Below are positions 22,105-62,133 of a DNA stretch of 64,000 nucleotides, piece after piece. How positions within the stretch are numbered: the first letter of the stretch is position 1; the number at the start of each line of letters is the position of its first letter. Source of the DNA: Candidatus Nomurabacteria bacterium (GTDB lineage Bacteria > Patescibacteriota > Minisyncoccia > Phycocordibacterales > UBA9973); contig CALRHR010000001.1 in assembly GCA_943359485.1 (NCBI GenBank), forward strand, positions 51,141-115,140, in the 5' to 3' direction. The notes under the pieces are model-generated. The model did no database searches. It had not been told where the DNA came from and was given only the letters and a program-made list of their open reading frames with translations. The position numbers and the translations under genes are program-made.

Positions 22105-22267
22105 TAAAGTATAAATAATTTTTAGAGCAAAGATTGAACTCTAACGAATCCAACAAAAATAATACGAATCGTAACATCCAAGGGTCGACGATGCAAAGCA
22201 TCGGAGATACTGAGGAGCGAAGCGACGAATGTACTGTTTTTTGTTTTGTTTCGTTCTAATTAACTTT

Positions 22268-23910
<1,643 letters not shown>

Positions 23911-24137
23911 TTGAAAACTATCCCGGTCCTCTTCGGAGGGCTGAGTGTCAGACCCGTTCTGACCGGATTTATTGAGTCGGTATTGTGTCGCTCAATTGAC
24001 GACACAATAGTTTTTGCTCAAACTTAAAATGAGCTAGACTATATGGAAAGACATATAAAATAAAAAAGTTTCAGCCTTCGGGCTGATCCGCCTCTGGCGG
24101 AAAAAAGGAACGAAACAAAACAAAGGACAGTAACAAA

Positions 24138-47013: not shown

Positions 47014-47032
47014 TGTCAAAGGCGGGCTTTGA
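47014..47032. repeat. REP hairpin GTCAAAGGCGGGCTTTGAC
   Basis: Perfect 7-bp stem; identical copies lie at 47658 and 47738. Confidence 0.7.
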
Positions 47033-47642
47033 CATCAAAATTCAGTGTTTGCTCTATAAAGTTTTTAGTGTCTCCAAAAGTTTCCAGTAAGAATTCTTTA
47101 CTAACTATTGGCAAGTTTCGGTCTGATGCATAATCATTATAACTACCCCACTGATATTCTTTTGGATGTTTCACTAATCCATCTTTTACTGGATTCATGT
47201 GAATATAAGATGATGTCCACATCAGCTGAGGATCGCCTTTAATAAGTACTGCCTTAAATTTGTCTTGAAAAACATGCCCAACTTTTTTATATTTTTTATT
47301 AATGTATCTAGAATAACTAGTACAAAGTTTTAACATTAATTTTGAAATTGGCATGTCTACAATTTGTTCAATTAGAAAATGGAAGTGGTTTGGCATCAGA
47401 CAAAAAGCATACAAATTAAAAGCCCCTTTTTCCATTTTAGTTATCCTGATTCTAGAGTAGGGTAGGGCAGTTAATTTTTCTTTGTTTAATTCTTCTTCAG
47501 TAAATCCCAAAGACAGTCCCAGTCTAAAGAGGAAAGCTCTATAATCCTGCTCATCGAAAAATATCTTCTCCTTATTATTGCCACGATTATAGATGTGATA
47601 AATACCACCAGGAGCAAATTCTTTAAAGTCTCTATTATTCAT
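47016..47642 (-). mobile_element. IS200/IS605-like Y1 (HUH) transposase, REP-associated tyrosine transposase type
   Basis: Contains YHIYNRGN, the HUH motif MPNHFHFLI and a catalytic Tyr region. REP hairpins flank it on both sides. Confidence 0.8.
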
Positions 47643-47800: not shown

Positions 47801-48319
47801 ATGTTCTCCGATCCGGTAAAAAATTTAAAAGCTTTGGGGTTGCGGGAGACTGACATTGTGGCGGATTTGGGTGCCGGGACAGGATACTATGCTATTGCCG
47901 CAGGTCACATTGTGACCAAGGGGAAAGTTTATGCAGTTGAAATAGCGGAAGACTTCCTTCATACAATAAAAAATAAAACTAAAGAAGCACATCTCTCTAA
48001 TGTCGAAATTCTCTGGGGAGATGTTGAAAAGATAGGTGGCACAAAAATCGGTGACGGCATTGCTGATGCAGTTATTGCCTCAAATGTGCTTTTCCAAGTT
48101 GAGGATAAAGATGGATTTATTAATGAAACAAAACGAATTTTAAAGCCGAAAAGCAAAGTCTTGCTAGTAGACTGGTCTTCAGATTCTCCACTTATGGGGT
48201 TAAAACATTCCGTACATAAAGACAAAGCACGGGAGATGTTTGAAAAAAAGGGTTTTGTTTGGCAACGGGACATTGACGCTGGAGCGCATCACTATGGTAT
48301 GATATTAATCAAGAATTAA
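47801..48319 (+). CDS. class I SAM-dependent methyltransferase
   Basis: Contains motif I VADLGAGTGYYA. Confidence 0.7.
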   Translation: MFSDPVKNLKALGLRETDIVADLGAGTGYYAIAAGHIVTKGKVYAVEIAEDFLHTIKNKTKEAHLSNVEILWGDVEKIGGTKIGDGIADAVIASNVLFQVEDKDGFINETKRILKPKSKVLLVDWSSDSPLMGLKHSVHKDKAREMFEKKGFVWQRDIDAGAHHYGMILIKN

Positions 48320-48325
48320 TTTGCA

Positions 48326-49624
48326 ATGAAAAGCAATTTTCAAATTATAGTTTTAGTTGTCTTTATTGTATTTGCCATTTTCGGCGTTTTGGTTTTTTCT
48401 GGCACTATACCGATAGGTGACAATGGTGAGCCGGGGTCTTTGGGCACAGTTACTTTATGGGGGACAGTCAAAAGCGAGGCGATGATTCCTATTCTCGAAG
48501 AATTCAATCTTGCCAACCCGACTTTTATCTTAAAGTATGTTCAGAAATCTACAGATTCGTTCGACCAAGACCTACTTGAAGCTTTAGCTGAAGGTAGGGG
48601 TCCCGACATTGTTTTCATGACAGATGAATTAGCATTTCACTATAATAATAAAATTTTTACCATTCCATTTGCCAGTTATCCGCTCGCTTCATTCAAAAAT
48701 AATTTCGCTAGTGCTGGAGAAGTTTTTCTGACTTCAAAGGGTATTATGGCTTTTCCTATTTCTATTGATCCGCTTGTGTTGTATTACAATCGTAGTATTT
48801 TAGATGCAAATGGTGTGGTGTATCCCCCAGTCTATTGGGACGAAGTCTCTCTACTTATTCCCACTTTAACCAAAAAAGACGATAGCAACAGAATATCAAA
48901 AAGCACCATAGCGTTGGGGCATTTTTCAAATATAGCTCATGCCAAGGACATTATTTCCACTTTATTTATGCAGGCGGGTAGCTCCATTGTAGCCGAGAAA
49001 AGTGGCATTTTTAGCTCTAGCTTGGATGTACCAGGTAGGCAAGATAACCCTAGTGCAAGTTTGAAATTTTACACTGACTTTGCCGACCCAAACAGCGAGT
49101 CGTATTCCTGGAATAAATCTTTTTCAAACTCCAGAGACAGCTTTTCCAAAGGGGACTTGGCATTTTATATTGGTTACGCGAGCGAGCTTTCATCGCTCAT
49201 AAATAAAAATCCGAATCAAAATTTCGGAGTGGCACCACTTCCACAAAAACGAAATGCTAATTTTAAATTAACCGGAGCTCACATTACTGGTGTTTCTCTT
49301 TTGTCATCTTCCAAGAACTTTTCTACCGCCCTTACTGCGGCGAGTCTCATAGCTACGAGCAACTTCGCTTCCAAATTTGCCACGATTTTTGGGGTAGCCC
49401 CAGCCCGCCGGGATCTGCTTGCCGTCAAAAAGGCGGATGATAGCTTTATGCCGACGGTGTACAATTCCGCGCTCTTCGGAAAGAGCTGGCTCGATCCTTC
49501 CCCCAAAGATACAGATGTTATCTTCCGCCTTATGGTCGATGGAGTTCTTTCCAACAGTATAACTCCGGACAATGCCGTATCCGATGCAGATAGCAGACTT
49601 AACATTTTATTGCTTCAGCCATAG
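48326..49624 (+). CDS. extracellular solute-binding protein (ABC transporter family 1-like), membrane-anchored
   Basis: Has an N-terminal TM/signal segment and resembles a periplasmic binding protein over its length. Confidence 0.5.
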   Translation: MKSNFQIIVLVVFIVFAIFGVLVFSGTIPIGDNGEPGSLGTVTLWGTVKSEAMIPILEEFNLANPTFILKYVQKSTDSFDQDLLEALAEGRGPDIVFMTDELAFHYNNKIFTIPFASYPLASFKNNFASAGEVFLTSKGIMAFPISIDPLVLYYNRSILDANGVVYPPVYWDEVSLLIPTLTKKDDSNRISKSTIALGHFSNIAHAKDIISTLFMQAGSSIVAEKSGIFSSSLDVPGRQDNPSASLKFYTDFADPNSESYSWNKSFSNSRDSFSKGDLAFYIGYASELSSLINKNPNQNFGVAPLPQKRNANFKLTGAHITGVSLLSSSKNFSTALTAASLIATSNFASKFATIFGVAPARRDLLAVKKADDSFMPTVYNSALFGKSWLDPSPKDTDVIFRLMVDGVLSNSITPDNAVSDADSRLNILLLQP

Positions 49625-49654: not shown

Positions 49655-50050
49655 ATGAAAAATATAAAAAAAATTCTCATAAATATCACGGCATTCCTGA
49701 TTGTATTTATGTTGCTTGTTACACCAGTATTGTCTTTTGCGTATAATATCAGGGATCCGATAGTGCCACCTTGTCCGGCGACTGGGTGTGGGTGGAATGA
49801 ATTTTTAATGCTTATAAACAATGTAATTTATTTTATTCTGTATGGTTTGGCTATGCCTATTGCTGCCATTATGTTTGCGTATGCCGGAGTTCTTCTCGTC
49901 CAAGCGCAAGGTGGGGAAGCCAAAACTAAAGCCAAAGAAATTTTCCTGAACGCTGTGTACGGCCTGGCCATAGCCGCCGCTGCCTGGCTGATAGTCAAAA
50001 CCTTACTCGCTGTGTTGGGTTACAAAGATGCCGCTTGGATTGGATTTTAG
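49655..50050 (+). CDS. small two-TM secreted/membrane protein, member of paralog array (pilin-like architecture)
   Basis: Signal peptide, a CPATGC pair, then helix, an AKTKAK loop and a second helix. Confidence 0.55.
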   Translation: MKNIKKILINITAFLIVFMLLVTPVLSFAYNIRDPIVPPCPATGCGWNEFLMLINNVIYFILYGLAMPIAAIMFAYAGVLLVQAQGGEAKTKAKEIFLNAVYGLAIAAAAWLIVKTLLAVLGYKDAAWIGF

Positions 50051-50053
50051 TGT

Positions 50054-50482
50054 GTGTATGTTATAATAAAAGCAATGAAATTTATTAAGAAAAATTTTTA
50101 TATCATAGTACTGCTGACTTTTTTGGTTGTTATGCCTATCCTTTCTTTTGCGCAAGCTACGCCTGGCGGGAACCCTATAAGTACACCTGGTGGAAATGCC
50201 GGATGTGACCCCTCGAAGAAAATCTGCAATCCGATAAAAACCGACACCTTAAATGGCTTTATCAGGGCTATCCTTGAAGGCGTCTTCAAGATCGGCTTGC
50301 CTATTTTAGCGTTGGCATTTGTTTTTGTTGGTTTTCTGTTTGTGCAGGCCAGGGGTAATTCGGAAGAATTGACCAAGGCCAAAGATGCTCTGTTGTATAC
50401 TTTAATCGGTGCAGCGGTGATCCTCGGGTCGTGGGCTATCGCACAGCTTATCACTGAAACAGTGACCGCATTAAAACCGTAA
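50054..50482 (+). CDS. small two-TM protein paralog
   Basis: Signal peptide ending SFAQA, a Cys pair, then helix, an EELTKAKD loop and a second helix. Confidence 0.55.
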   Translation: MYVIIKAMKFIKKNFYIIVLLTFLVVMPILSFAQATPGGNPISTPGGNAGCDPSKKICNPIKTDTLNGFIRAILEGVFKIGLPILALAFVFVGFLFVQARGNSEELTKAKDALLYTLIGAAVILGSWAIAQLITETVTALKP

Positions 50483-50517
50483 GGTATGGTTGATTATTAA
50501 TAAAAATAAAAATAAAT

Positions 50518-50820
50518 ATGATGTGTAATCAAGAAGGTTTAATTGAAATGGTGTGTAGGTTGGGTGATCTTTTCAGTATTGTTGTTCCGGTATTAGTGGG
50601 CTTGGGAGTTGTTTACTTTGTCTGGGGTGTCGTTCAATATGTTATTGCTGATGATGTAGAGGCAAAGTCGAAGGGCAAAGACAGGATAATCTTTGGCATT
50701 ATCGGTTTGGCTGTGATTGTTAGTTTGTGGGGGTTAGTGTTCATTCTTACGGATACTTTTTTTGGTGTAGATGCAGGCATGGAAGGTGCCCCTGATTTTC
50801 AAGGTCTACTTCCTGAATAA
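50518..50820 (+). CDS. small two-TM protein paralog
   Basis: Has the core YFVWGVVQYVIADDVEAKSKGKDRIIFGIIGLAVIVSLWGLV. Confidence 0.55.
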   Translation: MMCNQEGLIEMVCRLGDLFSIVVPVLVGLGVVYFVWGVVQYVIADDVEAKSKGKDRIIFGIIGLAVIVSLWGLVFILTDTFFGVDAGMEGAPDFQGLLPE

Positions 50821-50825
50821 AAAAT

Positions 50826-51563
50826 ATGAAAAAATACGCACAAAAAATAGTAAAATTTATTCCAATACTTTTTATTTTAACCTTTGTTCCATTTTTAGTT
50901 TTTGCCCAACCCATACCCCCTTCTGCGCCTTCCGGTTTGGCTGCTGTAATAAATAAAATCAGTGCTTTGCTTAGCTCACTTCTCCCCGTACTTATTTCCC
51001 TAGGAGTACTCTATTTTATTTGGGGAGTTATTATTTATTTTATTGCTGACGATGCAGAGGCAAAGTCGAAGGGCAAAGACAGGATAATCTACGGCATTAT
51101 CGGCCTTGCTGTCATTGTCAGTGTTTGGGGACTGGTTGCCATCTTAAATCAAACTCTTGGTTTGAGTGGGAACTCTGGTTTATCTGGCGTGAGTGCTCCT
51201 TCTAGTATTTCAAATTTGGCACCCTCTTCCAATGTATTACCTTCATGTTCATATATGATAAGTAATAAACCAAAGCTGGCGAATTATCTGGAGTACTTTA
51301 CTTGTATAATTGCTCAATCAGTCATCCCACTTATCTTTGCCATAGCTGTCGTGACCTTTATCTGGGGTGCGGTAAAGTTCTTTATCATCAATGCGGAAGA
51401 GGAAGCCAAAAGAGATCAGGGCAAGCAGTTCATGCTCTGGGGTATTATTGCCCTCGCGGTGATGATCAGTGTTTGGGGTTTGGTCAAAATTCTGGGAGAG
51501 ACCGTGAATATAGATACAAACTATCTGCCTTCAGTTCAGCCGTACAGTTCATCCCGGCCGTAG
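50826..51563 (+). CDS. small two-TM protein paralog with a tandem-duplicated helix-loop-helix module
   Basis: Signal peptide followed by two copies of the module (ADDAEAKSKGKDRIIYG... and NAEEEAKRDQGKQFMLWG...). Confidence 0.55.
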   Translation: MKKYAQKIVKFIPILFILTFVPFLVFAQPIPPSAPSGLAAVINKISALLSSLLPVLISLGVLYFIWGVIIYFIADDAEAKSKGKDRIIYGIIGLAVIVSVWGLVAILNQTLGLSGNSGLSGVSAPSSISNLAPSSNVLPSCSYMISNKPKLANYLEYFTCIIAQSVIPLIFAIAVVTFIWGAVKFFIINAEEEAKRDQGKQFMLWGIIALAVMISVWGLVKILGETVNIDTNYLPSVQPYSSSRP

Positions 51564-51620
51564 CCCTTGCTTTTATTATTAGTATGTTTGTGTTAGAATT
51601 AACAGGTCGTTTATTAATTA

Positions 51621-51700
51621 AGTCAGGTACTAGGTGTTAGGCGCTAGGCATTAGCATAAAATCAAGCTAAAGCTTAAAGTCTAAATTCCTAAAGCCTAAA
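51621..51700. repeat. CTAGGC/CCTAAA hairpin repeat element
   Basis: The arms CTAGGTGTTAGGCGCTAGGCATTAGC and GCTAAAGCTTAAAGTCTAAATTCCTAAAGCCTAAA are imperfectly complementary. Confidence 0.6.
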
Positions 51701-51703
51701 AAA

Positions 51704-52090
51704 ATGAAAAATAAATTAATGGTTTTGTCGGGTTTTGTTATGGGTTTGGTTCCGGTCGTGGCGTTAGCGCAGAATACTGGTGGTACTCCTACTGTGTGTA
51801 CTGCGGGTCCTGTGACAACCTTTCAGGGTGCCTTGTGTAAAATTGGGGAGATTATGAATGCAATCATTCCGATTTTGATAACACTGGGTGTACTGTACTT
51901 TGTCTGGGGAGTTATTTCGTATGTTATTGCTGATGATGAAGAGGCAAAGTCAAAGGGACGAGACAGGATAATCTACGGTATTATCGGCTTGGCTGTTATC
52001 ATTTCTGTTTGGGGATTGGTGAAGATTTTGTCAAATACTTTTGGGCTTACAAATGTACAGCAAATTACTTTTCCGACTGTTTCTTACTAA
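51704..52090 (+). CDS. small two-TM protein paralog
   Basis: Signal peptide and a Cys pair, then the core YFVWGVISYVIADDEEAKSKGRDRIIYGIIGLAVIISVWGLV. Confidence 0.55.
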   Translation: MKNKLMVLSGFVMGLVPVVALAQNTGGTPTVCTAGPVTTFQGALCKIGEIMNAIIPILITLGVLYFVWGVISYVIADDEEAKSKGRDRIIYGIIGLAVIISVWGLVKILSNTFGLTNVQQITFPTVSY

Positions 52091-52140
52091 TCTATAAAGT
52101 GTCGCACCAAGAATCGTGCGACATGATTTCGTAAAATCAC

Positions 52141-52488
52141 ATGAATTTATTTCTCGGTCTTTTCTCTGCCAGGGTGGCTTATGCGAGCGTTGATACCTTT
52201 ATGAATAGCGTAGGCGAGCTTATCATAAATCCGCTCATCAATTTTCTTTTTGCTCTAGCGGTGGTGTATTTTCTGTATGGCGTGTTTGAATTTCTGTCCA
52301 ATCAGGAAAATGAAGACAAGAGAACAGCCGGCAAGAGCCACATGCTTTGGGGAATTGTCGGCATCACCATCATGATGGGTGTGTGGATCATCTTTGGTCT
52401 TATTCTGGACACTTTTAACTTAAGAGGTGACATAGATGTCAGTTCAGGAGGGGTTATAAATGTGAAGTTGCCACCATACAATCCTTAA
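52141..52488 (+). CDS. small two-TM protein paralog (divergent)
   Basis: A helix, an ENEDKRTAGKSHMLWGIVG loop and a second helix. Confidence 0.45.
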   Translation: MNLFLGLFSARVAYASVDTFMNSVGELIINPLINFLFALAVVYFLYGVFEFLSNQENEDKRTAGKSHMLWGIVGITIMMGVWIIFGLILDTFNLRGDIDVSSGGVINVKLPPYNP

Positions 52489-52624
52489 TAGAGAATTCAT
52501 CTCAAGAGAATAAATTCAAATTAGAGACATAAAAAGGGCGACTTCGCAAAAGCGAAGTCGCCCTTTTAGGTTCTGGAGTCAGTTTACTTTGCACAGCATA
52601 GATCTTTTGTGGTATACTGCAACT

Positions 52625-52855
52625 ATGAAAAATATCATTCAATTTTCAATCGAAAAAGGGCAGGATGGGTATTACATTGCTACAGCAAATGATTTTGCTA
52701 TTATTACCCAAGCGAAAAATTTAGAAGATTTGTTTGTAAATATTAAAGAAGCCACCGAGCTTCACTTTGAAGAAATTTTAGAAGAAGAAACATCTCTGAG
52801 CCGCAATCCTTCAATTTTTATAAACTACGAAATGCCTATCGCGCTCTATGCCTAA
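52625..52855 (+). CDS. hicB: HicB-family antitoxin
   Basis: UPF0150-like over IEKGQDGYYIATANDF...IKEATELHFEE, and it overlaps hicA. Confidence 0.6.
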   Translation: MKNIIQFSIEKGQDGYYIATANDFAIITQAKNLEDLFVNIKEATELHFEEILEEETSLSRNPSIFINYEMPIALYA

Positions 52856-53090
52856 ATTAAAGCGACTTTCTGGCAAAGAAGTCATAACTTTTTGTGAACA
52901 ACACAATTTTAGTATCAGTAGACAGAAAGGAAGCCATATTAATTTGGTACGAATTGTTTCAGAGAAAAAACAAGTGGTGACCGTGCCAAATCATAAAGAA
53001 ATAGACAGAGGAACATTGCATAATATTTTCAAGAAACTGTCTTCATTCATTCCTGAAGAAGATTTAAGAAAATTTTTCTTTACTGACTAG
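52848..53090 (+). CDS. hicA: HicA-family toxin (mRNA interferase)
   Basis: LKRLSGKEVITFCEQHNFSISRQKGSHINL matches the HicA KGSH motif. Confidence 0.65.
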   Translation: MPKLKRLSGKEVITFCEQHNFSISRQKGSHINLVRIVSEKKQVVTVPNHKEIDRGTLHNIFKKLSSFIPEEDLRKFFFTD

Positions 53091-53102
53091 GTAAAATCAA
53101 AA

Positions 53103-53160
53103 AGGCGGTCGTTCATCGCTGAACGGGTCCGCCTTTTGTTTTGCGCGTGGGGCTCGCACG
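53103..53160. terminator. bidirectional terminator hairpins
   Basis: AAAGGCGGTCGTTCATCGCTGAACGGGTCCGCCTTTTGTTTTG, plus a second hairpin CGCGTGGGGCTCGCACGCG. Confidence 0.6.
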
Positions 53161-53248
53161 CGCGATGTTTTCATGAGCCCTCCTTTCTCCGAAGTTGATC
53201 TGCTTCGGGCAGAGACCTTCTTTGCGCTGGTCAGGCGCTCCGAGAGAA

Positions 53249-54253
53249 TTACTCCCGGATGTATACACCTGTGGCTGGGGTTGCCCCCTCGCCACAGAAC
53301 TTCCAGATCCCCGCCATCCCGATGGACGGCGGGGGGGTGGTGCCGAAGGTCTCTGTATGAGATCCTCCGTCCGGGTCAAACACCTTCATGGAGCCCCGAT
53401 CGGGACCCCACTGGCTGTTGATCCGTAGGTTCCGTTCGTAACAGCCATCTGTTCCGAACGGGTAGAGGGTGGGTGTCGGCCCTACCTTCGCGGGCGCCGG
53501 GGCTGTCGAGGCCACCGGCGTGGATGTCCGGCTACCTGCCGGTGAGGGGGGTGCGGGAGGTAACAATCCCCCAAAAAATCCACCCACTGTCTCCCGGATC
53601 TCGGTCCCGACCCGTTGGGCTACTTTGTCGCCGACTACAGCCTTTTTTGCTGTGTCGATAGCCACTGGGCCGATGCCGCGCCCCTCGGATGCCGCCTGAT
53701 CTGCTTCCTCCCACTTCGTCGTGGGGGCGGGAATCGCGGGGACCGTCATTGGCGTCGCCGACTTCGGCCGAGCCATCTCGGCCGATCGTGGCATTTCCCT
53801 TGCCACGAAAAGGGAAATCAACACTATTCCGAAGATGGTGAGCGCTGGCTTCACTCGGCCGTGTGCCGTCATTGCGGCGATCACGACCGAACAAAAAAAC
53901 AGCGCTACCCAAATTAAGATATCCGTACTGGCTGTTGGGTATAGCCATGGGCGTGGTCCCGTGGTGAGAAAGTAGCTGAAGGCGAAGTTATTGCTAACTC
54001 CGACAACAGTAGTTCCCACCATCATGACGAATGTAAGCGTAGAGAACCCGACGATGAATTTCTTCATTCCATCGGAAATTCCGCCGCCGTGTGCCGCCGC
54101 GGGTCGCGAGAGGCCGCCCCAGCCTTGGTGCTGGGCCAGCTTGTAAAGGCCGTACAGCACTCCGCCGACGATAGCGACGGTCCAGGGGTTCCAGCCGAAT
54201 GAGCTCGACACCCAATACACTCCCAGGGCCGCGATTGCAAATTTCCAAAACAT
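53249..54253 (-). CDS. polytopic membrane protein with Pro/Thr-rich extracellular C-terminal region (GC-rich island gene C)
   Basis: Several predicted TM helices and a high-GC codon bias. The leader repeat lies immediately upstream. Confidence 0.55.
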   Translation of the reverse strand: MFWKFAIAALGVYWVSSSFGWNPWTVAIVGGVLYGLYKLAQHQGWGGLSRPAAAHGGGISDGMKKFIVGFSTLTFVMMVGTTVVGVSNNFAFSYFLTTGPRPWLYPTASTDILIWVALFFCSVVIAAMTAHGRVKPALTIFGIVLISLFVAREMPRSAEMARPKSATPMTVPAIPAPTTKWEEADQAASEGRGIGPVAIDTAKKAVVGDKVAQRVGTEIRETVGGFFGGLLPPAPPSPAGSRTSTPVASTAPAPAKVGPTPTLYPFGTDGCYERNLRINSQWGPDRGSMKVFDPDGGSHTETFGTTPPPSIGMAGIWKFCGEGATPATGVYIRE

Positions 54254-54254
54254 T

Positions 54255-54600
54255 TCATTTCTTCCTTAACTCCGTCCCCTTGACTGGGCAACATGGAGTT
54301 GGAGCAGACTGATCAGAGTACTACAACCGCTTGCGCGTTTGTCTTACTTTGAATAGTCTGCCCGCTAGGAAGCCGGATTTTTTCTCTCCTCTCCTTACCC
54401 CCTCCGCTTTCAGCACCTCCCCCTAAATAGGGGGAGGCCGGGTAGGGGTACAAAGGGGTGAGGGTTCAGCTACATGGCGGGCAAACCATTCATTTTGCTC
54501 GAAATTCTACTTACTTCTTATTTAATTTTCGAAGGTCAGCTTTACCTATGTATTGTATCACACTTATGACAAAAAGTCAAGCCCTTTGGGCTGAATTTGT
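54255..54600 (-). promoter_or_regulatory. ~310-bp AT-rich leader, copy 1: near-consensus sigma-70 promoter plus structured 5' UTR
   Basis: On the minus strand the promoter reads TTGACT-N17-TACAAT (about 54560-54590). The leader has a conserved P1 hairpin UCGAAAAUU...AAUUUCGA and a closing helix UGCCCG/CGGGCA around a variable GC-rich core. It is duplicated at 56190-56500. Confidence 0.6.
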
Positions 54601-54783
54601 CCTTATTTTGTAAGGTTAAAATGATAAAAGGGCCGCCTCAGTGAAGAGACAGCCCTTTGTTTTGCGCTGGGCCTGTGCGCGATTTGGGCCCTGGGTTGAC
54701 GAGTCCCCGTTGCGTCACTCTGGTTTGTTCCCTCCAGACGGGAGACCTCTATTTTGTAAGCGCTGGTCAGGTGCTTTGTCTTT

Positions 54784-55281
54784 TTAGGGGCAGTACCGGC
54801 TTGCCCCCTCTTCGAGGGGGTTGAACGGCCGTTTCTTCCCGTCCTCCCCGACGATCTCGTCGGGGCAGCCGAATTTCTTGTGTTTGGGGGTCCCTACCCC
54901 CAGAATTTTGTCGACGGCCTGGTCGAGCGCTTGCCCGACAGAGACCGCCGACTTGCCGTCGCCGAGTCCAAGACTCCCGAGGACCTTGTTGATCCCCTCG
55001 AGGGCCGCGTTCCCGGCGGTCTTTCCGATCTCAAGCGCGCGCCGATTGCGCAGCGCGCGGGCCTTGGCTAGAATCGTCGGAGTGCTGTCCTCCGGATGCG
55101 CCTCGAGCCAGGCCAGCGTCTTGCTGGCCCCGTCATAGAGCGCCTTCGCTCCCTCGATTGTTGTAGCGGCTGGAGCCTTCTCCAGAGCCGCCACTTTCTG
55201 CGCCATTTTTTCTTGTCGGCTGGCGCCACAACCGACCGCCGTGAGTGCCACGGCGAGCACGAACGTCAAGAGGAAATTCAT
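54784..55281 (-). CDS. putative lipoprotein (GC-rich island gene B)
   Basis: The signal sequence MNFLLTFVLAVALTAVGC has a lipobox-like Cys, and a strong GGAGG SD lies upstream. The region is high-GC. Confidence 0.5.
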   Translation of the reverse strand: MNFLLTFVLAVALTAVGCGASRQEKMAQKVAALEKAPAATTIEGAKALYDGASKTLAWLEAHPEDSTPTILAKARALRNRRALEIGKTAGNAALEGINKVLGSLGLGDGKSAVSVGQALDQAVDKILGVGTPKHKKFGCPDEIVGEDGKKRPFNPLEEGASRYCP

Positions 55282-56153
55282 TTCTTCCCTCCCCCTCCAA
55301 ACATTCCCTTGACTATCCACTCCAGGGGCTGGGTGACTACCTCACCCAGGGAGTGTTTGGCGGCCAACTCCCCAATGCCGCCAATCTTCCATTTCCTAAT
55401 ACCCCCGAGGACCTCGTCCCAACGGGAGCAGACGATGGCTCCGACGAGCGCTATCATCTGCCACCCGAGAACTCCCCACCCCATAGCCTTCTCCCCGAAG
55501 AGAAACGAGTTAATGGTTGCCCAAAAACCGAATTCCCCCAGGGGATCCTCGAGCGGAGTCGTTGCCACAGCCCAGAACTGGGCTTTGGCGATTTCGATGG
55601 GGTTTAGGGTTGCTGGCGCCGCGGTAGGGTCCACCCACCACAAAAACACCACCCCTAACACCATCCACACCGTCGTGCGAAGTACCCAGTTGTTGTCGCC
55701 GAGCCGGATCAGGACACTCCGCCCGATCTCCGCAGCCCCACGGCCGTGAGTCTCGATTCCCGCGAAGATGGCGAAGACCGCGAGCGTGGTCACGAGGGCA
55801 ACTAGCGTAAAGGCTGGGTAGCCGAACCAAAAACCGAAGACGATCCAGTAGAGTACTATGAACAGCGCCCCCCAGAATCCCACGGTCTTCGGCTTGATCA
55901 CTACCTCGCCTTCGTCGCAAGCGCCATCGCCTACGACTTCGGCCCTAATGATGTGTCGTCCCGGTTTGAGGTCTTTGAGCTCGAAGCTCGCGACCCCGCC
56001 TTCCGTCTTTACGGCGCGCTTGCGCTTGCCGTCGACCGAGAAACGAACCTGGACTTCTTTCTCGCCACCTTTTTTCCCGGCGGTGGCCGGCCGGTCTGAC
56101 ACGACGGCTTCCGCCACCGTGTCTTTCTCTACTAAACTCAAAGTCAAAATCAT
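55278..56153 (-). CDS. membrane protein with N-terminal soluble beta-rich domain (GC-rich island gene A)
   Basis: Starts MILTLSLVE after an AGGAGA SD, has several TM helices and shows high-GC codon bias. Confidence 0.55.
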   Translation of the reverse strand: MILTLSLVEKDTVAEAVVSDRPATAGKKGGEKEVQVRFSVDGKRKRAVKTEGGVASFELKDLKPGRHIIRAEVVGDGACDEGEVVIKPKTVGFWGALFIVLYWIVFGFWFGYPAFTLVALVTTLAVFAIFAGIETHGRGAAEIGRSVLIRLGDNNWVLRTTVWMVLGVVFLWWVDPTAAPATLNPIEIAKAQFWAVATTPLEDPLGEFGFWATINSFLFGEKAMGWGVLGWQMIALVGAIVCSRWDEVLGGIRKWKIGGIGELAAKHSLGEVVTQPLEWIVKGMFGGGGKK

Positions 56154-56189
56154 TATCTTTCTCCTAATCAAATTTTTTCTCGAGCACAC

Positions 56190-56500
56190 GATTCAGAATA
56201 CTACAACCACTTGCGTGTTTGTCGTTTCCTGAATAGTCTGCCCATCAATGAGCCGATGCATTTCCTCTCCCTGCGAAGGGGGAGATTTGAGAGGGGGTCT
56301 CAAGAATTACCACCCCTAGCCCCTCCTTAATCAAGGAGGGGAGGAAACATAAAATACTCAGCTTCTTAACGGGCAAACCATTCATTTCCCCGCCAGTCTG
56401 GCCGGGGTAAATTGCTCGAAATTCTACTTACTTCTTATTTAATTTTCGAGTAACAGCTTTACCTATGTATTGTATCACACTTATGACAAAAAGTCAAGCC
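56190..56500 (-). promoter_or_regulatory. ~310-bp AT-rich leader, copy 2
   Basis: About 100 bp are near-identical to copy 1, including TTGACTTTTTGTCATAAGTGTGATACAATACATAGGTAAAGC, and the same P1 hairpin and closing helix are present. Confidence 0.6.
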
Positions 56501-58235: not shown

Positions 58236-58745
58236 TTATGCATGCTTTAGGGGTGTGTCGTGATAGTTTTGCTCTCCGCGGAATACCCTCCTAACTAAGA
58301 TGACTATCAAGAGAATTAATATCGCAAGAAGAATCCATTGAACAAGCCCAGAAGGCATGAAACTATTTGAACCATAGATGACATTGGCAGCAAGTTCTTT
58401 GACATCTTCCGCAGTCTTGACTGGTTCGTCGGCAGTAGAAGTTGTGGCAACTTTGTTCGTAGCAGGCGCTGCTTTTCTCACGGTAGTCGTAGTGGTAGTT
58501 GCCTGTGGAGCATAAGCGTTAGTATTTCCTGAGTAAATAGTAGGCGCGTCGGAATACTCAGTATTAGTATTTACTCCCGCAGAATTGTCTCGTACAGTAG
58601 CCCACTTAGTGCTGTTGTAAGGGGTAACATACCCGGCTCTGTCGGCACTTGCTTCTGTGGGTACAAACATGACCCCTAGAGCCAAAATAGTGAATGCTTG
58701 TAAGCCATAAAATGCTATATTTAATTTTTGATTATATTTATTCAT
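58236..58745 (-). CDS. membrane-anchored surface protein, Thr-rich
   Basis: Has an N-terminal signal/TM segment and a C-terminal TM anchor, with a poly-Thr stretch. Confidence 0.5.
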   Translation of the reverse strand: MNKYNQKLNIAFYGLQAFTILALGVMFVPTEASADRAGYVTPYNSTKWATVRDNSAGVNTNTEYSDAPTIYSGNTNAYAPQATTTTTTVRKAAPATNKVATTSTADEPVKTAEDVKELAANVIYGSNSFMPSGLVQWILLAILILLIVILVRRVFRGEQNYHDTPLKHA

Positions 58746-61323: not shown

Positions 61324-61341
61324 TGTTTTTCTGTTTCTTTG

Positions 61342-61413
61342 AGGCGTGGGTGGGAATCGAACCCACGCATGTCGGTTTTGCAGACCGAAGCGTTACCATT
61401 TCGCCACCACGCC
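61342..61413 (-). tRNA. tRNA-Cys (anticodon GCA)
   Basis: Acceptor stem GGCGTGG/CCACGCC and anticodon loop CUGCAAA. Confidence 0.75.
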
Positions 61414-62133
61414 TTTTAAATGAAAATCGATTATTTTTCTAATTTTCCTATCAACAACCTTTGGTCGTAATTCAAAGTAGTTATTGAATATTTTAAATTT
61501 TCGCATAAAAAATGAATTAATGCTAGTGCCTTTGTATATTAGTTTGAATATTTGTAGAGAATCTTTTGTGTTGTATATTGCTTGGAAAGATCTCTTACTT
61601 GAATAAATTTTACCTTCTTTAATCCCAATTTTTCTAAAAACATGATTCATTTTTTCAAGAAATATTTTACTACCACTAGTAAATATCACACGAACCCTTT
61701 TTATTATTAATTTTTGGGTTTTACCTTTGGTTTGTGCAAAGTGAACACATCCATCTCCATCAAAATATCCCCTCATAAAATGACCTAAGTATTTTTGTGG
61801 AACTTTTGGGAACTTTATAGTTAGAGATTTGTTTGGATATAGACCTAATCTAAAAAGGTCATTGTATATTTTATGACTACCTATTCTTAACGCAAAGCAA
61901 ACTTTTCCTCTGATAAAATTCGACCTTTTCTGGTTTGTTTTGTGTTCTGAACCCAACCATGTTTTTATTCTTTCTATGGAATCTTTATCTGTGCTAGCTA
62001 TTTGGATATATTTACCACGCATATAAGGTGAATCATCCAAACTTCCATCAGCATAAATATATCCCAAAACATAGGCCATATTCGGGGACCATTTTTCGAA
62101 GAATTTTTCATTAACTTTATATTTTATTCCCAC
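61393..62133 (-). CDS. LAGLIDADG-family homing endonuclease (two-motif, single-chain)
   Basis: Two LAGLIDADG motifs are present (LGYIYADGSL and MRGYFDGDGCV). The last 7 codons GGC GTG GTG GCG AAA TGG TAA coincide with the 5' end of tRNA-Cys on the same strand. Confidence 0.75.
   Translation of the reverse strand: MGIKYKVNEKFFEKWSPNMAYVLGYIYADGSLDDSPYMRGKYIQIASTDKDSIERIKTWLGSEHKTNQKRSNFIRGKVCFALRIGSHKIYNDLFRLGLYPNKSLTIKFPKVPQKYLGHFMRGYFDGDGCVHFAQTKGKTQKLIIKRVRVIFTSGSKIFLEKMNHVFRKIGIKEGKIYSSKRSFQAIYNTKDSLQIFKLIYKGTSINSFFMRKFKIFNNYFELRPKVVDRKIRKIIDFHLKGVVAKW

Follow-up and report, generated by a model that had tools for sequence, protein, structure and literature searches.

A Conserved Chromosomal Operon of T4SS_pilin Family Genes in a Candidatus Nomurabacteria Bacterium

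A stretch of 64,000 nucleotides from the chromosome of a Candidatus Nomurabacteria bacterium (NCBI assembly GCA_943359485.1, contig CALRHR010000001.1, positions 51,141 to 115,140; hereafter the window) carries at positions 49655-52488 six consecutive plus-strand genes, g1 to g6, that encode small membrane proteins of 100-245 amino acids. An earlier reading, made by a model from the DNA letters and their translations (the sequence-only reading), had described them as an array of paralogs with the architecture of VirB2/TrbC-type pilins, lying in an accessory segment and possibly forming a variable repertoire of surface filaments. The locus therefore raises the question of whether these proteins belong to a pilin family at all and, if so, whether the array is an exchangeable repertoire or a stable part of the genome. 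The analysis revealed that the array is a fixed, deeply conserved core chromosomal operon of the PF18895 pilin family. The structure that its products may build, and its relationship to a type IV secretion system (T4SS), are considered after the evidence for this result.

Architecture and Family Membership of the Six Proteins

All six open reading frames (ORFs) were found where they had been placed, and alignment of the proteins confirmed the helix, charged loop, and helix module proposed to be common to them, which consists of a long hydrophobic helix, a charged turn reading ADDxEAKSKGKDR in the best conserved copies, and a second hydrophobic helix (IIYGIIGLAVIVSVWGLV). The g4 protein holds two copies of this module, at residues 38-110 (nucleotides 50937-51155; g4a) and 151-226 (nucleotides 51276-51503; g4b), linked by a Ser/Gly/Pro-rich segment that carries a conserved Cys pair. 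Only g3, g4a, and g5 are close paralogs, with 51-60% amino acid identity, and all other pairs share 19-37%. Predicted structures of g4 and g5, calculated with AlphaFold2 (AF2) from alignments of 18 and 31 homologs, depict the module as a hairpin of two helices of ~35 residues with a three-residue turn at the charged motif. In g5 the helices span residues 40-75 and 79-112, and the four long helices of g4 form two such hairpins (38-73/77-110 and 151-186/193-226).

By inspection, g1, g2, g4, and g5 have classical signal peptides, which end in SFA, VFA, or ALA, with predicted cleavage between VLSFA and YN in g1, ILSFA and QA in g2, and VVALA and QN in g5. The leader of g6 is short and atypical, a 15-residue hydrophobic start ending in AYA (MNLFLGLFSARVAYA), and g3 starts directly before helix 1, with no signal peptide. 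A pair of cysteines is placed ahead of helix 1 or reaches into its beginning in g1 (Cys40 and Cys45), g2, g3, g5, and the second module of g4, and is absent from the first module of g4 and from g6. The proposal that four Sec-type signal peptides are followed by a Cys pair thus held in part: the four leaders are clear and the pair follows the leader in g1, g2, and g5, but g3 has the pair without a leader and g4 has it only before module 2. In g5 the two cysteines (Cys32 and Cys45) are invariant, and the protein ends in a conserved PTVPY-type C-terminal tail.

The Pfam gathering cut-offs are 26.6 bits for PF18895 (T4SS_pilin) and 27.9 bits for PF04956 (TrbC/VirB2). All six proteins score 32-63 bits on PF18895, with the next-best families far under threshold. 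On PF04956, g2 (24.6 bits, E = 3e-5; the copy nearest to this family), g1 (12.3 bits), and the g1 ortholog in the related locus L082 (25.1 bits) all remain below the cut-off, and g3, g4, g5, and g6 give no match. The VirB2/TrbC-type architecture that had been claimed is accordingly supported through PF18895, which all six pass, and not through PF04956, whose cut-off was not reached; at the level of sequence, membership of PF18895 is established, and membership of the classical TrbC/VirB2 family is not established. All 120 homologs listed for g4, and 119 of 120 for g5, have recorded PF18895 matches, several homologs of the two are named "pilin" by NCBI, and most of the 120 best g4 matches listed cover >90% of the length at identities of up to 70%. 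The nearest relatives of the g4 and g5 proteins come from metagenome-assembled genomes (MAGs) of Ca. Nomurabacteria and Paceibacterota, which bears out the earlier suggestion of a host from the Candidate Phyla Radiation.

Other families were matched less well. On NF045849 (the Mbov_0395 family, pilin-like proteins of Mycoplasma integrative and conjugative elements, ICEs), g4 scores 42.4 bits against a cut-off of 40 and does so only by summing its two modules; g2, g3, g5, and g6 score 24.5-29.8 bits, below the cut-off, over the whole 80-residue model, and g1 gives no match. The sequence-only reading had stated that placement in an unrelated family such as holins would speak against it; no match to holins or another such family was found in Pfam, NCBIfam, or PHROGs, the last of these giving only a marginal "membrane protein" match for g5 (E = 0.009). 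A tblastn search of g2 against 72,556 plasmids returned no pilin match.

Conservation and Positional Orthology of the Array

One genome per GTDB species was scanned with an alignment of g4 homologs, which yielded 80 loci on MAG contigs (individual loci are cited by L numbers). Pilin modules were marked with a hidden Markov model and flanking genes with phmmer on called ORFs, whose starts are the first start codon, so that the protein lengths given for these loci are upper bounds. The possibility that related genomes would lack the array had been raised as a point that would tell against it; instead, it recurs in 80 species. In virtually every locus, the order begins with genes for an S1 protein (minus strand), a metallo-β-lactamase-fold protein, and GyrA, sometimes followed by a Y1 transposase gene (minus strand), and continues with a methyltransferase (MTase), a solute-binding protein (SBP), and the pilins. 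Downstream lie a conserved gene for a 169-residue surface protein (minus strand) and, further on, the gene for initiation factor IF-2 (minus strand). The location in an accessory segment was not borne out, as the MTase, the SBP, and the array are found in the 80 species at one and the same site, with gyrA on one side and the conserved gene downstream of the array on the other.

The arrays that are bounded on both sides comprise 34 with five genes and six modules, 25 with six genes and seven modules, as in the window, and three with five genes and seven modules, the result of a triple fusion. In best-hit comparisons, the gene at position 1 matched g1 in 76 of 76 cases, position 2 matched g2 in 76 of 76, module 2 of the fused gene matched g4b in 76 of 80, the penultimate gene matched g5 in 70 of 70, and the last gene matched g6 in 77 of 77. 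The same holds for the cores of the three close paralogs, whose nearest neighbor was the same-position gene of another species in 20 of 21 species for g3 and in 19 of 21 and 21 of 21 for the other two. Median identity of orthologs to the window is 50-59% for the pilins, well above the identity between paralogs outside this trio, 62% for the SBP, 67% for the MTase, and 86% for GyrA. With each position forming its own ortholog group at this level of identity, the proposed variable repertoire was likewise not sustained. Aligned orthologs of g5 share 63-79% identity with the window protein, and nearly all have 127-136 residues.

Within the pilins, identity to the window residue is highest in the loop and in helix 2 (0.6-0.78). 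The N-terminal ectodomain (0.17-0.35), the g4 linker (0.21), and the C-terminal tail (0.28-0.55) are for the most part the least conserved; in g6 the N-terminal part is a five-residue stub with a higher value (0.48). Variation in gene content is concentrated around g4. The g3 gene is a lineage-specific extra copy of g5 type, sampled in 21 species and lacking a signal peptide in about half of them; an extra single gene of g4b type follows the fused gene in L053, L056, L063, L065, L066, and L072; and the third pilin gene of L073, L075, L077, and L082 encodes a triple-module fusion of ~300-330 residues. Fusion and fission of adjacent pilin modules are thus recurrent in the clade. The ortholog of g1 is extended to 300-966 residues, with the pilin module at its C terminus, in L078 (4808-7708), L085 (7286-9139), L077, L074, L082, L058, and L019, and the extension of the two largest contains fn3 or purple-acid-phosphatase-N-like repeats. 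On these domain matches, the long form of g1 looks like a pilin-anchored adhesin.

Identical DNA Cores Shared by the Youngest Paralogs

DNA cores of ~35 nucleotides had been reported as shared by three of the copies. The cores are real, the third copy, in g5, carrying three mismatches, while g3 and g4a share an exact 34-nucleotide match, GAGGCAAAGTCGAAGGGCAAAGACAGGATAATCT (Table 1), which was reproduced in none of 100 shuffles; the longest identical run between these two is 35 nucleotides. Moreover, 15 consecutive codons that are identical in amino acid between g3 and g4a are also identical as codons (shuffle P ~1e-4). The clustering of codon identity was not significant for g3 and g5 (P = 0.09) or for g4a and g5 (P = 0.21).

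Constraint at the nucleotide level, in the form of an RNA element or a codon preference, was excluded as the source of the cores because the motif EAKxxG(K/R)xx(I/M)(I/V) is written with varied codons in 20 other species having the same three genes. In those species the 36-nucleotide cores of one genome are on average 66-73% identical, those of different genomes 63-67%, and no other core pair among them reaches 94%. Since the cores are identical here although the 20 other species vary their codons, the data point to recent, short gene conversion among g3, g4a, and g5, the youngest paralogs, specific to the window genome; the codon-run test and the cross-species control thereby agree with the gene-conversion-like interpretation that had been put forward. 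The tract covers the conserved loop, which is predicted to be cytoplasmic, and not the exposed parts. Weaker traces were found elsewhere as shared lineage-specific residues and identical nucleotide runs, for example between g3 and g5 in L014 and between g4a and g5 in L009. Within the trio, identity between paralogs of one genome also exceeds that between genomes by 3.5-3.8 percentage points (in 18 of 21 and 16 of 21 species; Wilcoxon P = 2e-4 and 7e-4, with species that are not independent).

Operon Organization and Predicted Expression Signals

The genes of the locus are closely packed. In 78 loci the MTase gene immediately precedes the SBP gene, at a median distance of 4.5 nucleotides; in 79 loci a median of 4 nucleotides separates the SBP gene from the first pilin gene; and the median gap between pilin genes is 18 nucleotides. 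The sole long junction within the array is that between g4 and g5, with a median of 110 nucleotides compared with 7-12 at the others. This spacer contains an extended -10 promoter-like element, TGTTAGAAT, that has TGnTATAAT-type counterparts at the aligned position of ten other species, each a TATAAT with an upstream TG or G. The six pilin genes, the MTase gene, and the SBP gene are probably one operon, ended by a putative terminator after g6, and a second hairpin, behind g5, may be an attenuator or an mRNA-stabilizing element. The terminator was found by folding and the promoter box by cross-species alignment; a scan for consensus promoters and terminators gave counts no higher than those of shuffled sequences and missed both. 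No ABC permease or ATPase gene adjoins the SBP gene.

Table 1. Features of the pilin operon and their positions in the window
Feature	Position	Strand	Length or evidence
Class I S-adenosylmethionine-dependent MTase gene, likely first gene of the operon	47801-48319	+	Pfam Methyltransf_31/11/25
Orphan membrane-anchored SBP gene (SBP_bac_1, weakly MalE-like)	48326-49624	+	PF01547/PF13416, weak MalE match
g1, pilin-like gene, position-1 ortholog group	49655-50050	+	131 aa; PF18895 34.9 bits
g2, pilin-like gene	50054-50482 from GTG (142 aa); 50075-50482 from ATG (135 aa)	+	PF18895 40.2 bits
g3, pilin-like gene without signal peptide	50518-50820	+	100 aa; PF18895 38.2 bits
Gene-conversion tract, copy in g3	50659-50692	+	Exact 34-nt match to 51057-51090
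g4, tandem-fused double pilin	50826-51563	+	245 aa; PF18895 63.2 bits, two stretches
Gene-conversion tract, copy in g4 module 1	51057-51090	+	Exact 34-nt match to g3 copy
Extended -10 promoter-like element in g4-g5 spacer	51591-51599	+	Spacer alignment of 11 species
g5, pilin-like gene	51704-52090	+	128 aa; PF18895 41.6 bits
Third core copy, in g5	51941-51974	+	3 mismatches to GAGGCAAAGTCGAAGGGCAAAGACAGGATAATCT
9-bp hairpin behind g5, no U tract	52099-52124	+	Fold -15.2 kcal/mol, z -3.9
g6, last pilin-like gene, no Cys pair	52141-52488	+	115 aa; PF18895 32.2 bits
Terminator-like hairpin, 16-bp stem and UUUU	52532-52568	+	-29.9 kcal/mol, z -7.7, 0/200 shuffles as stable

Proposed Assembly and Relationship to a Type IV Secretion System

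We consider it probable, with considerable room for doubt, that the array is a VirB2-like pilin operon whose products build one heteromeric structure, in which g5 would be the major subunit, g1 an adhesive or tip subunit, and g4 a hard-wired dimer. Insertion through Sec/YidC and leader cleavage are established for VirB2/TraA-type pilins. By analogy, the precursors of the array proteins would be inserted through Sec/YidC and relieved of their signal peptides by leader peptidase, and each hairpin would reside in the cytoplasmic membrane with both termini outside and the Lys/Arg-rich charged loop inside. The parts so exposed would be the fast-evolving N-terminal segment with its Cys pair, which may be stapled by a disulfide, and the C-terminal tail. 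A distant VirB4-type ATPase would then extract the subunits and polymerize them into a structure, pilus-like or lining a channel, of the kind proposed for Patescibacteria where they touch their host cell. It is the architecture, together with the literature on the phylum, that suggests a VirB2-like mode of action, and the formation of a pilus by these proteins would follow from the same analogy.

The assignment of roles derives from the pattern of conservation. Five paralog lineages (g1; g2; the g3/g4a/g5 subfamily; g4b; and g6) are kept in fixed order, which argues for non-redundant parts of one heteromeric assembly. As the most conserved copy, and the one with its own conserved promoter-like element, g5 is the candidate major subunit, and g1 is the candidate adhesive or tip subunit because its counterparts in other species have up to 966 residues, with fn3-like repeats in the two largest. 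The fused g4 would fix two subunits, elsewhere three, as neighbors.

Published work on the phylum provides the context for this proposal. VirB4 has been recorded in 2,407 of the 3,035 assemblies from Patescibacteria (~79%), and its usual place in Paceibacteria is near dnaA and dnaN. VirB2-like proteins are widespread, with 441 arrays of 2-11 genes in 383 assemblies, and components were sought there within ±20 coding sequences (PMC12102498). Of 17 Nomurabacteria assemblies with the orthologous array in Table S1 of the same article, 16 are marked "Yes" for VirB4, so that the absence of T4SS or type IV pilus (T4P) components, which had been named as a possible objection, does not describe the relatives. 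Given the background of ~79%, this figure is only compatible with a T4SS link. According to the legend of Fig. S9, arrays were mapped near virB4 (PMC12102498), and an array type remote from virB4 may therefore have gone uncounted there.

Several observations weigh against the heteromeric VirB2-like assembly. The confidence of the AF2 models was moderate (pLDDT 63 and 66, with helices at ~70-78). Profile alignment by hhalign with seven annotated MPF_T VirB2/TrbC proteins taken from plasmids gave probabilities of 20.6% for g1 (P = 0.0011) and 7.5% for g2 (P = 0.0047), both in the correct helix-loop-helix register, and ~1% for g5 and g6, and a sequence profile search of the PDB returned only chance matches to G protein-coupled receptors. 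Pfam scans of the window ORFs detected no T4SS or T4P ATPase and no VirB3, VirB6, or VirB8; at least ~45 genes lie upstream of the array in the window and none is virB4, so that a location within ±20 coding sequences of it was not borne out, and the ~10 kb to the left of the window contain no T4SS gene. In the 80 loci, large ORFs up to 10 kb from the array likewise include no VirB4-like gene; the unannotated ones were clustered, and the representatives scanned proved to be Mur ligase, aminotransferase, ClpB, threonyl-tRNA synthetase (ThrRS), and others. With no virB4-like gene near the array, genomic linkage to a T4SS is absent here. Furthermore, the 80 species form one clade in which the whole region is syntenic, and for this reason the adjacency of the SBP and MTase genes is weak evidence of a functional link. 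Finally, no T4SS pilus is known from any Patescibacterium, and a review refers to it as an "intriguing possibility" (PMC12857230).

Alternative Explanations

Some of these observations would also suit a membrane complex that works independently of any T4SS, in which the hairpin proteins would not leave the cytoplasmic membrane and, together with the orphan SBP and perhaps the MTase, would serve uptake or the organization of the envelope, and "pilin" would be a family label. The distance from virB4, the weak homology to proven pilins in the hhalign comparison, and the unseen Patescibacterial T4SS pilus (PMC12857230) all fit such a complex, as does the position of the array, which always begins 1-15 nucleotides after an orphan SBP gene, one unaccompanied by an ABC permease or ATPase. 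However, the linkage to the SBP gene is seen in a single syntenic clade and says little about function, and the leaders and rapidly changing ectodomains are what surface-exposed proteins would have. Elsewhere in the phylum, members of the same family are encoded within T4SS clusters and are reported to be essential. Hairpin sets of two to six transmembrane (TM) segments that lack an EAA-loop permease or an ATPase are also not known to have a parallel among SBP-dependent transporters, whether ABC, TRAP, or TTT. We therefore regard this complex as unlikely, although it deserves consideration. A more speculative and rather doubtful suggestion, drawn from gene order and domain content, is that the MTase-SBP-pilin operon may be a distinct device of Nomurabacteria-type Paceibacteria, remote from virB4, whose five fixed pilin lineages would form an obligately heteromeric filament or channel in which double or triple fused pilins would hard-wire neighbors, g1 would be an fn3-type adhesive subunit, and a dedicated SBP would, for example, capture host-derived nutrients at the contact site, with an MTase that perhaps modifies the pilins. 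A repertoire of alternative subunits, shuffled by gene conversion so as to vary the surface or the host, appears improbable. The conversion tract of the window genome, the small same-genome excess of identity in the g3, g4a, and g5 trio, the five to six genes whose number varies around g4 with fusion and fission, and the rapid evolution of N-terminal ectodomains and C-terminal tails are what such a repertoire would predict, and host-range versatility has been proposed for arrays of this kind (PMC12102498). Yet positional orthology is strict across the 80 species, the similarity of the g5 orthologs extends through the exposed Cys-loop and tail, the conversion tract avoids the exposed parts, and no silent cassettes, inverted repeats, or recombinase were found at the locus.

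Two further explanations have very little to recommend them. Cargo of a phage or mobile element (holins, lysis proteins, or an integrated conjugative element) would account for small proteins with two TM segments, for the toxin-antitoxin pair and foreign-looking GC-rich segment that adjoin the array, and for the narrow passage of g4 over the NF045849 cut-off, but the other five genes fall under that cut-off, the locus is core and syntenic in the 80 species, the window Pfam scans showed no integrase, relaxase, or T4SS genes nearby, and neither a PHROG holin match nor a match to phage or plasmid DNA or protein was obtained. Holin, phage, plasmid, or ICE origin was excluded by the PHROG, phage, and plasmid searches, and it is hard to assign this explanation more than a trace of probability. 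The hallmarks of T4P pilins are a class III signal peptide, with a short basic leader, Gly-1, Phe+1, and Glu+5, and a single N-terminal hydrophobic helix. The array proteins have an AxA-type leader or none, in no case a class III signal peptide, and two hydrophobic helices, and they match no T4P family in Pfam or NCBIfam. T4P pilins were thus excluded on the leader motif, and assembly as T4P or competence pseudopilins by a PilB-type ATPase is most improbable, even though Patescibacteria possess T4P (PMC12857230, PMC10633639) and tandem genes for small, secreted, hydrophobic proteins would be in keeping with it.

Comparison with Known Pilin Systems

The heteromeric VirB2-like assembly finds its closest counterpart in Southlakia epibionticum ML1 (Saccharimonadia; SEML1_0006-0019; Wang et al. 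2023, PMC10633639), which is likewise a monoderm member of the Patescibacteria and has six tandem VirB2-like pilin genes that are structurally alike and divergent in sequence (PMC10633639, PMC12857230). The ML1 array lies inside a T4SS cluster and is essential by transposon sequencing, whereas the window-type array, known from sequence, lies at least 10 kb from virB4 in the 80 relatives. Coupling to SBP and MTase genes and a fused double pilin are features of the window array that go unmentioned for ML1 in the available portions of the two articles. The arrays described by Quinonero-Coronel et al. 2025 (PMC12102498) share the families PF18895/PF04956, the tandem layout, and low identity between paralogs (mean 25%), and the dataset includes Paceibacteria, with 17 assemblies that carry the window-type array. 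With six genes, the window array satisfies the definition of at least two tandem PF18895/PF04956 genes in Patescibacteria. The published arrays are commonest in Microgenomatia and Saccharimonadia, and the window type is set apart by its remoteness from virB4 and by the trio, whose identity of 51-60% lies above the reported maximum of 54%. The arrays were interpreted there as possible host-range versatility, whereas the positional orthology of the window type argues for fixed, non-redundant subunits.

The pilins VirB2 of the Agrobacterium Ti plasmid, TrbC of RP4, and TraA of F are, like the array proteins, small, with a long signal peptide, two hydrophobic helices, and a short basic loop. The array proteins nonetheless score below the PF04956 threshold, with profile-profile probabilities of 7-21%, and they lack the neighbors of the seven plasmid virB2 genes, each of which is flanked by virB3 on one side and a VirB1-like or T4SS gene on the other. 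Moreover, the window host is a monoderm with five to six paralogs and a covalent tandem form, whereas the VirB2, TrbC, and TraA systems have one major pilin. The VirB2 paralogs of Bartonella and Anaplasma phagocytophilum (cited in PMC12102498) are also in tandem, with recombination between copies plausible; those copies are held to be antigenic or host-interaction variants, in contrast to the window copies, each of which has orthologs in the 80 species and among which the exposed parts of g5 are conserved. The NF045849 proteins of Mycoplasma ICEs belong to monoderm hosts as well and are MPF_FATA-type T4SS relatives; five of the six window genes match this family weakly, and the window genes, unlike the Mycoplasma ones, are not on an ICE.

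Genomic Context and Flanking Genes

The flanks of the array are as had been described, with the SBP gene on one side and, on the other, genes for HicB and HicA (52589-53090) and a GC-rich stretch. The remainder of the window is housekeeping chromosome, with genes for ribonucleotide reductase, ThrRS, SMC, pyruvate phosphate dikinase, enolase, 16S rRNA, and SecA, as well as Mur ligases, GyrA, IF-2, and tRNAs. The same six pilin genes are found in NCBI assembly GCA_965045245.1 of the same organism, where a contig of 103,758 bp ends ~70 bp downstream of g6, within the terminator hairpin or immediately beyond it, and the next contig starts in hicB.

An accessory, variable region begins only after the terminator behind g6. 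In the window it contains HicB/HicA, the GC-rich segment of ~3 kb, a ParE-type toxin-antitoxin pair, and TerC, and the same spot in relatives holds other cargo, such as Fic/RhuM, Band_7, and TonB_C; HicBA occurs at the same position in L003 and L059. The GC-rich segment (53100-56230, ~3.1 kb) has 54-61% GC compared with ~37% for the genome and encodes three minus-strand ORFs (53249-54253, 54784-55320, and 55278-56189) that gave no Pfam, NCBIfam, or PHROG match, its DNA being unmatched in phages and plasmids. It is flanked by toxin-antitoxin pairs, the HicB-like/HicA pair and a ParE toxin with a small partner at ~56.2-56.9 kb (L086 3110-3627). Chimeric assembly was excluded as the origin of this neighbor, since the junction from g5 and g6 through HicBA into the GC-rich segment is also present in the independent Logan assembly ERR5863119; the part from HicBA into the GC-rich segment is also found in NCBI contig CBCEWA010000011.1. 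The 169-residue protein gene (58236-58745, minus strand) has no Pfam match and encodes an N-terminal signal or anchor sequence, a Thr-rich middle of low complexity, and a C-terminal TM helix; it normally follows the array, in convergent orientation, in most loci sampled. An ORF with a LAGLIDADG_3 domain (61393-62133, minus strand) abuts or overlaps tRNA-Cys (61341-61413), and homologs lie between the 169-residue protein gene and IF-2 in eight other species.

On the upstream side, a gene resembling IS200-like Y1 or repetitive extragenic palindrome (REP)-associated transposases (47016-47642, minus strand; NF047646 67 bits, cut-off 80) is located between gyrA and the MTase gene. Its presence at the same position in about one-quarter of the 80 related species suggests that it is long-resident or domesticated. 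Approximately 2-3 kb upstream of the start of the window, a DsbB gene and a thioredoxin-like gene (the latter a faint Pfam match) lie beside a cupredoxin gene (L095 6477-7447). With these genes on the same contig, extracytoplasmic disulfide-forming machinery seems to be present in this reduced genome, which is of relevance to the Cys pairs of the pilins. The 16S rRNA gene (22266-23911) is 1646 nucleotides long against a model of 1533 positions and so probably contains an insertion, and no 23S rRNA match follows it within the window.

Significance of the Conserved Array

Tandem arrays of VirB2-like pilin genes have already been published for Patescibacteria, and the window array adds one more. 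The features that seem to be unreported in the open-access literature searched are the positional orthology, the remoteness from virB4, the coupling to SBP and MTase genes, the double and triple fused pilins, the fn3-bearing g1, and the conserved promoter-like element before g5. To our knowledge, no T4SS other than that of Patescibacteria is essential to its carrier or, in monoderms, comes with pilin genes. Here, one large clade keeps five pilin lineages and a fused double pilin in its core genome, away from ATPase genes, and the retention of this fixed set argues for a heteromeric structure, not for interchangeable variants. The analysis thereby provides named candidates for its parts, with g5 as the putative major subunit, g1 as the putative adhesive subunit, and g4 as a putative fixed dimer. 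For annotation, it indicates that such arrays are not to be read as accessory or phase-variable islands.

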